Shown in pieces: positions 14,270 through 20,200 of a DNA stretch of 24,000 bases. How positions within the stretch are numbered: the first letter of the stretch is position 1; each line of letters starts with the position of its first letter. The stretch spans positions 1 to 24,000 of the forward strand of contig CAZXVR010000002.1 of NCBI GenBank assembly GCA_964644485.1, in the 5' to 3' direction. The translations under genes and the position numbers were made by a program. This DNA comes from an uncultured Candidatus Poseidoniales archaeon. GTDB lineage: Archaea; Thermoplasmatota; Poseidoniia; Poseidoniales; Thalassarchaeaceae. The notes beneath the pieces were generated by a model. It was not told the origin of the DNA. It made no database searches and saw only the letters and a list, made by a program, of their open reading frames with translations.

Positions 14270-17200
14270 TTATTTCCCCTTTCTTTTTAGCGTGAATCTC
14301 AACTTTTCTGGGACCGGAGCCATACCCTTTAGCCTGAGCCCTTTGATTGAGACAATCGGTTTCTGATTTCGATCGAACACCATGGCATCGTGAACTGTAA
14401 TTCCATTTTCTTCTTGGCTCCGGCGATAACTCCTGACCCGGAGGTCATCGCGAATTGCGGGTACTTTGAGTAATTCACACTCATCGATTCCTACCGGTAG
14501 GCTCGAAATCCCATCGATTTCCATTGCTACTAAACCTGCATTTTGGAAACAGGCCTCTATGAGCATCGGTAGTGATTCCAATAGTGCGGGCTCGTCATCA
14601 AACAATTTGGATTCGGGCAACTGATTGCGTAAGAGGGCAATCCCATCAGCTCCGAAATCGGCGCCATCTGACACCCCTTTGACCAAGCCACCATGAACTT
14701 GGAATCGTGGCCCATGGAAGAATCGATCATAAATGAAATTGGGCTGGAACGAGGCTTTGCCCCTTCCTGGTGAACTGGTGAATGCCACCTCTACATCTCG
14801 TTTCGCCCCCTCCTTCAACAAACGGACAATGCCCTCGTGATGGATACGAGGTTCACCGAATATTTCTCCTTTAGAATTGACCAAATCGCTCTCTATACGG
14901 CATTTGATGAACAAGGAATTTTGGTCTTGATCACTGTATTCGGCCTTCACACGTACACGTATTTCTTCCTTCATCAGTTTGATTGGGAGTCCAAATTTAA
15001 CTTCCGAAAATCCTTGAAGGATACACATTGGATACAGTAGGAGGGCATTTTGTGCAAACATTTCCATCGCCATCACCCCCGGATGATAGGGAGTCCCATC
15101 GATTGAGTGATCTGTTAGGAATGGGAATCTATCAGTCGAGAGGGTGCACTCTGTCAATATTTCAGAATATAGGTCATGATTCAGTATTCGATCCACAAAT
15201 GGGAACCGTTCCGGTTCTGAAAGGGCACCTGCTGTATCTGCCGGAAGTTTTTGTGGAGGGCCTCGTTTGCAATCTTCATTGTCCAATATTCCCAATGCGC
15301 CCGCAGCCACTACGCGGCGTTTGCCTCCACCTAGCATCTCTTTGACGAAAATTTCGACGCCTGATTCAACTGGAATCGTTTCGATGCCGGCTTGCATGAA
15401 CACGGATTCCAATGAGCCACGAGTTGCCATTCCAACATCGCGCCAGCCAGACCAAGCGATGGCGACTGCTCTGGGAGCAGCTTCGTGGTGAGCGATTCGG
15501 CACATCTCTGCATCCAGAATGTTGTTGGCGGCGGCATAATCGACTTGGCCACCGTTTCCAAATCTTCCCGCCACAGAAGTAAATGCGCACAGAACTCGTA
15601 ATTGATCCAGTTCGTCTCCTAATGCATCGATTAGCGCCCTCCAGCCATCGATTTTTACAGAGATAATATTCGCAAATGTTTGCCATGACTTGTCTGGAAC
15701 CAACTTTGAATCCTCAAGTCCAGCCCCATGAACGATTCCGGTGATGGAGCCACATTCTTTCCTGACAGCAGCTAGGACTTTGGCGACAGATTTGGAATTT
15801 GTAACATCACACGCATCATACAGCGCTCGGTTACCAGAAGATTGGATGTCCCGCATGGTTCTGTGAATCTCTAAACTGCGCATTTGTTGATTCCAGACTT
15901 GTTCCCATTCGACCATGGTGACTTTTCCAGATTCACTATTCGCAACCATTTCTTCTCGCAAATTCATCTTTCGTTCTTGCAATGTTGATTCATCGTCCTG
16001 TAACCATTCTTCTATACTGGCATCAAGTCGTGTTCTTCCAAGTAAGACAAATGTTGCACCAACATCCCTGCTTTGTTCAGCCACACCAACAACGCAGCGT
16101 GCGGTGACACCTGCGCCACCACCAGAAATAACCCATACATCGTCCGCTTGAAGCGGTTGAATTTCACCGACAATATCTTCCTCATACAAACGAAGAGCCC
16201 AACGGCTGCCATCACGTGAAAGCCCTACTTCCAGGGGAGTGGTTCGACCGAATGCTTCCGCCCAAATTTGGTGGGCGAGAGCGGTTGGGTCAGCGAGTAA
16301 TTCTGGATCAATGTCTACTGCCCTGCATCGCAAATGAGGCTTCTCTTTGGCATAGGATTTGATGATGCCATGGGATCCTGCTGCGAGTGCATTGAAACGG
16401 CTGCTAGCATTACCGTGGCGACCATCCATGGCGCTAACAGACATCACAGTACCATCTTCAATCGAACTGAATTGGGGATCAAGGGATTTCAGTAACCCGA
16501 ACAACCCATGTGTAGTGGATGTGAGTTGCGCCTCTTGGGTCTGAGTTTCCCAGCCCACGCCTGCAAGTCGAAGTGGAGACAAGTGGAGCAGGGCCACCAC
16601 ATCCCCGACCTTTGCGAGGTGAGCGCTGACTTCAGCAAGTTGCTCATGATTGCCAGGATCTACGCGGACAATATCGACTGGACCATCTTTCTCAATTTTG
16701 ATCTTTGAAACAATACTCGGATCAAGCATGATTCGAACCGTATCAATTCCTGCGGCCTCCAAGATATGACAAAGGGTATCTGCAACCCCCCAAGGGTCAT
16801 CTGTTACGGCAACCACCTTGCCATCAATATCCAAAGGAGTGGTTGCTTCAGGGGGTGCTTCTTCGACTTCGACCTGCCATCTCCGAACCCCAATTGTTTC
16901 GTTTTCGAATGTGGTGACGTCTGGCTCTGGTTGTAGTTCCAAAGGCTGGACGGGATCTACTGCTGTGGTTTCGACCTCCCCTTGGCCAAGATAAGCGATC
17001 ATGTGATTCAAAGTCGGGTGTTCACTTAGCACAAAGGACTCGTCCACGGGCAAGCCATAGAAATCTCTGAGTTCAGCCATGATTTCTGCTTGCTTTACCG
17101 TGTCAATGCCAAGTTCACCTTCGAGATCCTGATCCAGTTCGATGAAATCTTCAGGATAACCCGTGTGTTTGACGACGACTTCAACCACCTTGTTGGAAAC

Positions 17201-20200
17201 ATCACTTGCGGCTGGTGCTGGCAATGGAGCAGTTGTTTCAGTTTCAACCACCTCTTCGACAACCACTTCTGATTCCACCGAAGGTGATTCAGTTGGTGCA
17301 TTTCCACCAAGATAAGCGATCATGTGATTCAAAGTCGGGTGTTCACTTAGCACAAAGGACTCGTCCACGGGCAAGCCATAGAAATCTCTGAGTTCAGCCA
17401 TGATTTCTGCTTGCTTTACCGTGTCAATGCCAAGTTCACCTTCGAGATCCTGATCCAGTTCGATGAAATCTTCAGGATAACCCGTGTGTTTGACGACGAC
17501 TTCAACCACCTTGTTTGATACATCCCCTGAAGGAGAGGCAGGGGGCTCAACCTCTTTCTGGATGACCATGGGTTCTGGTTCTGGTTCTGGTTCTGGTTCT
17601 GGCACATTGTCCACTTTGTGTACTGCAGCCCAAGGAGTACCTTGAACACCACCGATAATCTTCTCATCTGGATTGATGTATGCGACCAATTTCCGCTCTA
17701 ATATTCGTAAATCGACTTCTCCACCTGCTTGATTTGAGGTCCAGGCTGCAATTCTATTTCGATCCAATCGGTCGAGGTTTGTTGCGATTCGTTTGATCAT
17801 TGTGAATACCATTTGGGATCCAAAACCGGCGGCGTGACGAACCACGTATTCGACGTTGATTGGCCCACCCTTGGATAATCGAAGATTGCCCAACTCAGGA
17901 TCTGGTTGTTTGAAATTTGCAATTGGTGGGAATTCACCTTGTGATAGGCCTCTTATCGATACAGCGTCTTCAATGCCAGTACCCATTGGATGCCCAGTGA
18001 ATCCTTTCGTATTCGTGATGATGACCTTGGAGGCACTGTCTCCAAATGCTCCCCGAAGTGCCTGTATTTCCGCAGCAGCGGAGCCACCCCGGGGAGGTGT
18101 TGCGGGTTCGTGTGACATGAAAGAAGTGCGTTCCGCAATCGAATGGCGATTGAATCCCCAATTACGTTCCATTGTTGCAATGAATTCCTCCAATGTGTTG
18201 GTCACATGTTCAACATCCAACCGTGTAGGGTGGAAGGCGGAATTGGCAAGATGGGTGCCGAGTAATTCGGCATATGGCGTAACGCCACGTTCCAAACTGA
18301 GGGTGTTGCGTTCAATGACAAAGGCGGCTGCACCCATACCGAGTAACATTCCATTTCTTCGCGCATCGAAGGGTAGGCTGACATCCTCCACAACATTGCC
18401 CATCGCATGGGCACCTGCGGCAGCAAATCCAGCACCGATCCAAGTCATCAGTTCCTCGCTGGTCGAATCATCCGCACTCACTATGATGATTCGGTCGCAA
18501 CGCCCTGTTGTGAGCCAATCCTCCGCAATCGAAATCGCTGAAGGCGTCGATGCGCAGGCATTGTTGACTGAAATATTGGGACCTCTGGCACCAATATATT
18601 GAGCAAATTGTGAATGACCCATGGTCAATATTTGTAGAAGGAATCGACGATCAAAATGACCCTCATCATCTGCCCCATTGTTCTGAGCGTGTTGCATTGC
18701 TTGATCGACACCTGGGAAACAGGATGCGAAGATTACACCCGTCCGATTTCTTTCTGATTCCGGTAGACTCCACCGTTGAATCAATCGTTTGCCGGCCTTG
18801 TTTATCTGCTCGACAGCGAGCAAGGGTAAACCTGCGTCTTTGAGTGCCTCAAGCCCTGCGGCTAGAGCCAGAGATGTTGTGATGTCCATGGCTTCGACAA
18901 TCTTGGGGTCTACCCCATATTGCTCAGCCAAATCGAAATGACCCCGGCGTCCCGCGAGCTGTGGAATCAAACTGAAATCATTGCATGGAACGAATTCTGC
19001 AGAGCCATCTGGATGCTTGATGATACGAACCAAATTCCGATCGAGGAGGCGCTGTTTGGTTTCTTCAGAAAGTTCGGAAATGAAATTGTCACCACGCATA
19101 ATTCGATCGAATGTATCCGATGCAAATACCTCGTCCATACCCGGCAAGCCGAGGCTAATCCCGCTGAAAACAAATGGATTTGAGCGGCGTGATGAGAGAG
19201 GGTTGGTGGAAGTAGAGGTTTGGCGTACTGGTTGCCTTTCTGTTGGTATTGAAGGGGCGTTTGGCACCTCATCCAACCACTCAACCAATGCGGGTAGAGT
19301 CTTTGCGTTAGTAGAACCTTTGACACGGTAAATCGATTGGATATTACTGTGGATTTCTGAAATCTTTGATGCGCTCAATCCGATGGACTCAAGATCTGTT
19401 GAGCCGTGAATCATTCGGATTGGGAAGCCGCTAACCTCTGACACTATGGTGGCGATTGCGATTTCCTTTGATTTTCGTTCAACTTCTTCTCGTTCGTCTA
19501 CACTCAAGAAATCTGTAGATTCCTGAATCGGAGGTGCATGACTTGTCACGACTCTTGGGGGGGTTGCGAGAGGGGCAGGGGTTGAAACTCGAACTCCAGC
19601 TTTGAAGGCGTCAGTAAGGGAGTTACTATCCGCCTCAGGCATGTTTGGAATTCGACCGGATAGCGCGTGAACTGCAAGGGCTGCATGGAACGAAGCAATG
19701 CCTCCTGCTTTCGGATGATTTGTGTTTGTCACTACCTTTGGTTGACCCTCAAAGATTTGTTCTGCGAATAAGGAGAGGGCTCGTTTGGGGCCAACCTCAA
19801 CAAACAGACGGGCACCGTCTCCATACATTGTTTCCATCTGTTTTGTCCATTCGACTGTAGAGGCCATTTGAGGTGCCAGTTTGGCTAGTATCGCTTCCTT
19901 TGGACTGCTTCCCGCTGGAGATACATTCGGATACCATCCGCCATCGAAATTTGAAGAAACTGGGATTAATGGAAGTTGGATTTCCAATCCCTCAAGGAAA
20001 TTGCGTAACGGCTCATTGGCTGGCGCAACAATCCGGGAATGGAAAGCGTGGCTGGTCTGAAGTTGCACACATGGGGCACCTGCCTCATCAAAGATCTTCA
20101 TCACACGTTTCATCGGTATTGTTTCACCTGCAATGACTGTCATCTTTGGACTGTTTTTATTGGCTGCAATCACGTATCCTTCTTCTGCCTCTAATACGGA

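Follow-up and report, generated by a model that had tools for sequence, protein, structure and literature searches.

Can an acyl carrier protein (ACP) carry its prosthetic arm on threonine instead of serine? The question is raised by a locus in an uncultured Candidatus Poseidoniales archaeon (GenBank assembly GCA_964644485.1), analysed as positions 1 to 24,000 of contig CAZXVR010000002.1, a stretch of 24,000 nucleotides referred to here as the window. On its minus strand the window encodes a large multidomain fatty-acid-type synthase (the megasynthase) with two tandem ACP domains, both of which have Thr at the position where 4'-phosphopantetheine is attached to Ser in canonical ACPs. A Ser anchor is treated as universal in the PROSITE pattern, in annotation rules and genome-mining tools, and in the use of Ser-to-Ala and Ser-to-Thr exchanges as 'dead' carrier mutants. 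The comparison with homologues described below suggests that in this family Thr is probably the natural attachment site. The features on which the argument depends are the following:

14270..22531, minus strand: megasynthase open reading frame (ORF) of 2753 amino acids, with the domain order ketosynthase (KS1), acyltransferase (AT), degenerate carrier domain (ψACP), second ketosynthase (KS2), ACP1, ACP2, ketoreductase (KR) and dehydratase (DH), from the ORF list, translation and Pfam
17303..17524, minus strand: ACP1, residues about 1670-1743 (PF00550; AlphaFold model with a predicted local distance difference test score, pLDDT, of 80.9; Foldseek match to 6lvu)
16982..17203, minus strand: ACP2, residues about 1777-1850, with the same core as ACP1 (second PF00550 stretch; 209-nt exact repeat)
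17420..17422, minus strand: codon ACG of Thr1704, the attachment position of ACP1 (sequence; start of helix II in the AlphaFold model; alignment to the DS serine of solved ACPs)
17099..17101, minus strand: codon ACG of Thr1811, the attachment position of ACP2 (sequence)

Each ACP domain has the sequence LEGELGIDTVKQAEIM; the Thr codons, both ACG, occupy 17420-17422 and 17099-17101, and the surrounding stretch ...LDQDLEGELGIDTVKQAEIMAELRDFYGLPVDESF... is common to both in the minus-strand sequence and its translation. Across the tandem carrier pair (16950-17600, minus strand) each copy contains LDQDLEGELGIDTVKQAEIMAELRDFYG, in which Thr directly follows the conserved Asp, and the tryptic peptide predicted to span this Thr is HTGYPEDFIELDQDLEGELGIDTVK. 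The phosphopantetheine-binding (PP-binding) family PF00550 matches in two stretches with 71.5 bits against a cutoff of 20.8; score and helical-bundle fold are those of this family, whose conserved (D/H)S(L/I) serine is Thr in both domains. In the AlphaFold model of ACP1, Thr (Thr45 of the construct) is the first residue of helix II, the location for which the original prediction had proposed to look, and a phmmer search against the PDB aligns it with the serine of the DS motif in the PigH ACPs (5y08) and in the S. aureus ACP (4dxe). Foldseek superimposes the model on solved ACPs with root-mean-square deviations (rmsd) of 1.4-1.8 Å and TM-scores of 0.7-0.88, including the T. maritima ACP 6lvu (TM 0.76/0.88, rmsd 1.4 Å). 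A regular-expression scan of the whole 2753-aa protein detected no DS[LIVMF] tripeptide, and matches to the pattern G-x-[DEHNS]-S-[LIVMF] are confined to KS1 and DH. Over 209 nt (16986-17194 versus 17307-17515) the DNA of ACP1 and ACP2 is identical in the core, within a repeat that reaches 223 nt at 98% identity, and because of this exact identity they amount to one observation within the window. The original prediction, made from the DNA letters and their ORF translations, had placed Thr at both attachment sites (ACG at 17422-17420 and 17101-17099), had stated that no canonical DS(L/I) carrier site exists in the megasynthase, and had cautioned that the identical copies count only once; all three statements are upheld by the sequence, the translation, the motif scan and the exact repeat.

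With ACP1 as query, phmmer returned 4569 matches among 1.84 billion cluster representatives; in the best 150 proteins, 334 ACP copies read DTVKQ(A/V)E and 213 read DSIK(R/K), as in PfaA. As judged by BLAST colinearity, the Thr type accompanies homologues of the whole architecture, including the internal KS2, at about 40% identity, while the Ser type occurs mostly in PfaA-like proteins that lack KS2. Among the 120 closest homologues, which share 52-84% identity with the window protein, 119 read GIDTVKQAEIM in all of their 280 ACP copies; the sole exception, P0116, reads GIDSIKQAEIM. A second search, seeded with a member from the Polyangiaceae, added 118 further bacterial proteins, about 40% identical to the window protein and colinear with it, and the motif LG[IV]DTVKQAE is present in every one of their genuine ACP copies (497/497). 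The bacterial sources comprise Myxococcota/Deltaproteobacteria, Chloroflexi (Oscillochloris, Chloroploca, Kouleothrix) and Leptospiraceae, together with Acidobacteria (Terriglobales, Sulfotelmatobacter, Terracidiphilus). Over all 1232 motif matches, the site residue is Thr in 1019, Ser in 211, Ala in one and Glu in one, the lone Ala and Glu matches possibly falling outside ACP domains. Where DNA of the loci was retrieved, all four Thr codons (ACG, ACT, ACA and ACC) are in use, and the Ser codon TCA of locus L013 is one step away from ACA. The same Thr is found in more than 1000 ACP copies, and the alignments indicate that it is fixed in about 300 homologous proteins from two domains of life, bacteria and archaea. 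The conservation in related ACPs, for which the original prediction had asked, is thus found, and Thr, far from being an oddity of one gene, characterises a large family spread over bacteria and archaea.

The homologues carry their ACPs in tandem arrays of two to six copies. Among the homologues from Marine Group II (MGII) archaea (P0002-P0035), the copy number ranges from one to four, and many proteins derived from metagenome-assembled genomes (MAGs) have a single ACP. Exact repeats of 209 nt may collapse in short-read assemblies, and ACP copy numbers taken from MAGs would therefore be unreliable.

The megasynthase also contains a third carrier-like segment, which provides a reference for the behaviour of an abandoned attachment site:

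19262..19498, minus strand: ψACP, residues 1012-1090, with Ala1054 at the attachment position (AlphaFold, Foldseek; site residues unconserved in homologues)

This segment, which reads IGLSASKISEI and lies between AT and KS2, has no PP-binding score in Pfam. AlphaFold predicts it as a carrier-like three-helix bundle (pLDDT 80.6), its best structural matches in Foldseek are ACPs and peptidyl carrier proteins with a TM of about 0.6-0.7, and as a BLAST query it recovers real ACPs from other proteins. Helix II begins at residue 43 of the construct, corresponding to Ala1054, which confirms the earlier assignment of a third carrier-like segment with Ala at the attachment position. In the MGII homologues the site triplets vary widely (SAS, SET, DET, GPE, DAD, SGD, DIN and others), with D/S/G/T at the first position, P/E/A/G at the second and E/D/A/V at the third. 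Among 68 homologues the site is unconserved; GLDPE, GLDAD and GISGD are common, and often no Ser or Thr is present at all. By sequence and predicted fold, ψACP is a decayed carrier and serves as an internal control for the drift of an attachment site after loss of use. It may be the remnant of an ancestral KS-AT-ACP unit.

The few Ser-bearing members of the family are informative for the relationship between the two residues. In a neighbour-joining (NJ) tree of the KR-DH region, calculated without support values, the KS2-containing family forms one clade, with the Ser-type PfaA proteins as outgroup, and three Ser tips, the archaeal P0116 and P0184 and the bacterial P0243, branch separately from within Thr lineages. 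The simplest reading of this topology would be a single replacement of Ser by Thr at the family's base, followed by a few reversions, and Thr is proposed to be the ancestral state of the KS2-containing megasynthases. Because the three Ser tips nest among Thr lineages, Ser and Thr appear to be interchangeable at the site, which is the pattern that a functional role of the hydroxyl would lead one to expect. The attachment residue is coupled to the residue that follows it:

17414-17422 and 17093-17101, minus strand: coupled residue pairs of the ACP motif (motif counts)

TV accounts for 1011 of the 1019 Thr copies and SI for 204 of the 211 Ser copies, with only eight TI and seven SV, although these counts are phylogenetically non-independent. 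In the revertant P0116 both residues have changed, from TV to SI, and P0184 and P0243 have SV. The TV/SI coupling may reflect volume compensation on the docking surface for the PPTase (4'-phosphopantetheinyl transferase) and partner enzymes.

The remaining domains of the megasynthase have retained their catalytic residues:

21104..22495, minus strand: KS1, residues 13-476, with the active-site DAACAS Cys and two His motifs (PF00109, PF02801, PF16197; translation)
19970..20650, minus strand: acyltransferase, residues 628-854, with GHSLGE and HAFHS (PF00698; FabD-like NCBIfam match; translation)
17699..19171, minus strand: KS2, residues about 1121-1611, Cys1326 kept (second PF00109 stretch; alignment of the Cys in homologues)
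15437..15862, minus strand: catalytic part of the ketoreductase, residues 2224-2365, with YAAAN (PF08659; translation)
14327..15166, minus strand: dehydratase of the polyketide-synthase type, residues 2456-2735, with HxxxGxxxxP (PF21089, PF14765; translation)

In the translation, the motifs DAACAS, EAHGT and GH of KS1, GHSLGE and HAFHS of AT, NNACAS of KS2, YAAAN of KR and HxxxGxxxxP of DH are all intact. Cys1326 of KS2 is aligned in 297 of 297 homologues, and its conservation indicates that KS2 is not a classical chain-length factor (CLF), which lacks this Cys; the megasynthase may have two active ketosynthases.

The enzyme that would load the carriers is encoded immediately downstream:

13471..14232, minus strand: Sfp-type PPTase of 253 amino acids (PF01648; profile search; synteny)

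The gene starts 37 nt beyond the stop codon of the megasynthase. Its product matches PF01648 with 35.4 bits (cutoff 25), and at profile level the PPTase family hits Sfp with E about 1e-11 and human AASDHPPT with E = 1.3e-14; the profile was needed, since a single-sequence phmmer search against the PDB yielded no PPTase match. The profile search aligns H125, D144, E146, W188, K191, E192 and K196 with the catalytic residues of Sfp and AASDHPPT. G142, D144, E146, W188, K191, E192 and K196 are invariant across the archaeal and bacterial cassettes, and H125 is kept in all sequences but one, from locus L019. With its PF01648 match and its catalytic residues, the protein is a predicted transferase of the Sfp type, in agreement with the original claim of a dedicated PPTase with intact motifs directly downstream. 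In addition to the window, seven of eight related loci examined have the PPTase gene directly after the synthase, and the eighth, that of the bacterial Ser-type P0243, ends at a contig edge 506 bp past the megasynthase gene. The exception at H125 is the PPTase of L019 (5703-6542), encoded beside the Ser-type archaeal P0184, which has Thr in place of His. To our knowledge, ACPs are otherwise not expected in archaea, and the Thr-ACPs are the only evident substrate of the adjacent PPTase in this archaeon.

The original prediction had offered three explanations for this arrangement, namely phosphopantetheinylation of Thr by the cognate PPTase, use of Ser1053 or Ser1055 in the degenerate carrier, and an inactive relic. 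Only the first of these remains; it is favoured by the comparative evidence, while the modification itself we infer. From this evidence it is likely that the Thr hydroxyl of the ACPs is phosphopantetheinylated by the co-encoded Sfp-type PPTase. The 4'-phosphopantetheine arm would then sit on the hydroxyls of Thr1704 and Thr1811, loaded by the downstream enzyme, and the loaded ACPs would shuttle malonyl and acyl thioesters among KS1/KS2, AT, KR, DH and a FabI-type reductase encoded upstream, which would supply the missing enoyl reductase activity in trans. The predicted outcome is the iterative, fully reducing synthesis of a chain that would presumably be of the fatty-acyl type. A functional hydroxyl is supported by the near-exclusive occurrence of Thr and Ser at the site (1019 plus 211 of 1232), and loading of Thr is further favoured by the intact motifs of KS1, AT, KS2, KR and DH in a protein that has no other carrier site. 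Several points weigh against loading of Thr. We know of no experiment showing a phosphopantetheinylated Thr in any protein, and full-text literature searches found no published Thr-linked phosphopantetheine. All archaeal sequences are metagenome assemblies of uncultured organisms, and the branching order that nests the Ser tips comes from a tree without support values. In a small sample of eight Thr-lineage and two Ser-lineage PPTases and Sfp, no residue was found that distinguishes the Thr lineages from the Ser lineages or from Sfp, so that the PPTase active site has no sequence signature of adaptation. Finally, the S36T variant of E. coli ACP is not converted to holo-ACP and does not support growth in vivo (PMC3340395), as the original prediction had correctly stated.

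The lack of a sequence signature for an adapted pocket and the unmodified E. coli S36T variant (PMC3340395) are also the points that speak for the main rival, in which the Thr-ACPs are never loaded and have a structural or docking role, while the synthase uses substrates bound to coenzyme A (CoA) or a separate carrier and the PPTase has another target. Such an arrangement is nevertheless unlikely, given that bacterial homologues have the identical Thr motif in fixed form, that the site admits only Thr and Ser while ψACP of the same protein drifts, and that productive carriers typically show such multiplication of tandem ACPs to two to six copies. The case for unloaded ACPs gains from proposals that archaea make fatty acids independently of ACP; the PPTase, however, is tightly linked to the synthase in bacteria as well as archaea, and no other carrier gene is present in the window or in the flanks examined. 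A different modification of Thr, such as phosphate or another CoA-derived group, or a regulatory role would satisfy the Ser/Thr-only pattern, which by itself implies only a requirement for a hydroxyl, but is very improbable next to a standard Sfp-type PPTase with intact CoA- and Mg-binding residues, in a cassette that has no conserved kinase or other modifying enzyme in the loci examined, and for ketosynthase chemistry that requires a thioester. That the synthase is an inactive relic whose ACPs died through loss of Ser is suggested by the absence of the canonical Ser from every carrier domain. This is contradicted by an intact 8.3-kb ORF kept in hundreds of genomes, by the invariance of the ten-residue motif LG[IV]DTVKQAE at about 40% overall identity with synonymous variation over four Thr codons, and by the retention of all catalytic residues of the synthase and of the PPTase, which together make a relic barely credible. 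Attachment of the arm to ψACP is scarcely plausible: its carrier-like fold and the Ser on either side of Ala1054 in the window sequence invite the idea, but Ser1053 and Ser1055 are rejected as the true site by the free variation of these positions in MGII homologues, their lack of conservation among the 68 homologues, and the missing Pfam score. A sequencing or assembly error changing TCG to ACG, for which nothing speaks beyond the DNA identity of the two window copies, is excluded by the occurrence of Thr in independent assemblies from many samples, encoded by ACG, ACT, ACA and ACC. Loading of Thr by the cognate PPTase is thus the reading preferred here.

The synthase and the PPTase both have their nearest homologues in MGII archaea (Ca. 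Poseidoniales / Thalassarchaeaceae, MGIIb), a group in which the synthase family occurs throughout, and the window contains further genes of archaeal character:

8446-9291: PCNA, archaeal gene
7028-8104: Nop56/58, archaeal gene
6355-7125: fibrillarin, archaeal gene

Alongside these genes the window, whose archaeal origin the original prediction had not recognised, has a complete synthase cassette of bacterial type that depends on ACP (FabI, megasynthase and PPTase; 13471-23341). The genes that accompany the megasynthase and PPTase are:

22541..23341, minus strand: FabI-type enoyl reductase of 266 amino acids (PF13561, 225.9 bits; FabI equivalog models with E about 1e-67, under their cutoffs)
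11204..13105, minus strand: ABC exporter with transmembrane and ATPase domains (PF00664, PF00005)
10399-11217: FGE-sulfatase-like ORF, downstream of the cassette
9305-10402: GT2 glycosyltransferase, downstream of the cassette

The stop codon of FabI lies 9 nt upstream of the megasynthase start. Synteny of FabI extends to four other loci of the Poseidoniales type (L013, L016, L017 and L020), in which the whole cassette is conserved in the order TatD, FabI, megasynthase and PPTase. An ABC exporter is also found downstream in L013, as is the GT2 gene, with transporters of the major facilitator superfamily instead in L017 and L020; a link between the exporter and the cassette is tentatively suggested, and the exporter, the FGE-sulfatase-like ORF and the GT2 glycosyltransferase might serve the export or decoration of the product. 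Two bacterial loci show the order acyl-CoA-dehydrogenase-like gene, megasynthase and PPTase, followed in Oscillochloris by acetyl-CoA carboxylase subunits. The dehydrogenase-like gene, encoding about 545 amino acids (L014, 8322-9965; L015, 8303-9937), lies directly upstream of the bacterial megasynthases, where the archaea have FabI. A survey of 270 MGII MAGs (Rinke et al. 2019) does not mention the FabI-megasynthase-PPTase cassette, and full-text literature searches found no published account of this archaeal synthase.

MGII are among the most abundant planktonic archaea, and their sequences predict that they encode a complete ACP-dependent cassette for synthesis of the fatty-acid type, which bears on the question of their membrane or secondary lipids. 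If Thr is loaded as proposed, a natural family of Thr-loaded carriers would extend the chemistry of PPTases and would explain why the clusters of Thr-type synthases always bring their own PPTase. It would also provide those who label proteins or engineer pathways with an orthogonal carrier/PPTase pair, and would expose a blind spot in tools that call Thr carrier domains inactive.

Compared with canonical ACPs (PF00550, e.g., E. coli AcpP), the window ACPs share the helical-bundle fold and an attachment residue that follows a conserved Asp at the N-terminal end of helix II, but have Thr where Ser is otherwise universal. The window PPTase resembles Sfp, human AASDHPPT and PfaE by profile-level homology and by its H, D-x-E and W-x-x-K-E-x-x-x-K residues; it differs from Sfp-type PPTases in its highly divergent sequence and in the presumed nucleophile of its substrate, Thr. 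Within NCBIfam the megasynthase is closest to PfaA from synthases of polyunsaturated fatty acids (PUFA), the subfamily TIGR02813 being its top match, and NCBIfam holds no specific model for the megasynthase family or its PPTase. Both have the order KS-AT-tandem ACP-KR-DH, near-identical tandem ACPs, the LGID-x-[IV]K motif and a dedicated Sfp-type PPTase (PfaE in the PUFA systems). PfaA ACPs, however, read LGIDSIKRVEIL with Ser at the site, and PfaA lacks the internal KS2 and ψACP that the window protein has between AT and the ACPs. With these extra domains and a score of 824.6 bits against a cutoff of 1010.1, the window protein falls outside PfaA, and the partners PfaB, PfaC and PfaD are absent from the window.

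A closer counterpart is the 'Type R' secondary-lipid synthase cluster (Shulse & Allen 2011, PMC3098273), in which one pfaA homologue with the order KS-MAT-CLF-ACP(3-6)-KR, MAT being the acyltransferase, is followed by a PPTase gene. This cluster, whose product is uncharacterised, was described from Koribacter, Solibacter, Elusimicrobium and Roseiflexus (Acidobacteria, Chloroflexi and Elusimicrobia), and the publication mentions neither threonine nor archaea (PMC3098273). By the published description, the window shares with Type R a single pfaA-like gene with the order KS-MAT-CLF/KS-ACPn-KR and a PPTase gene directly downstream. Proteins from the Type R phyla Acidobacteria and Chloroflexi and from Myxococcota align colinearly with the window protein at about 40% identity. 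The window protein groups with the colinear acidobacterial and chloroflexal proteins in the KR-DH NJ tree, which covers members of these phyla other than the named Type R proteins. It differs from Type R in its archaeal host, in having two ACPs and not three to six, in the FabI-like reductase upstream and in a KS2 that keeps its Cys; since Cys1326 is present in 297 of 297 homologues, the label 'CLF' for Type R clusters may be inaccurate. In architecture, the Thr family (KS-AT-ψACP-KS-ACPn-KR-DH with an Sfp-type PPTase) matches the Type R cluster; the Thr-type ACP/PPTase pair can be regarded as a variant within the PUFA-synthase-like Type R family. It is moderately probable that O-(4'-phosphopantetheinyl)-threonine is natural and widespread, with the whole clade of Type R architecture anchored on Thr, its co-transmitted PPTase accepting or specialised for Thr, and the T-V/S-I pairing part of the recognition code between the two.

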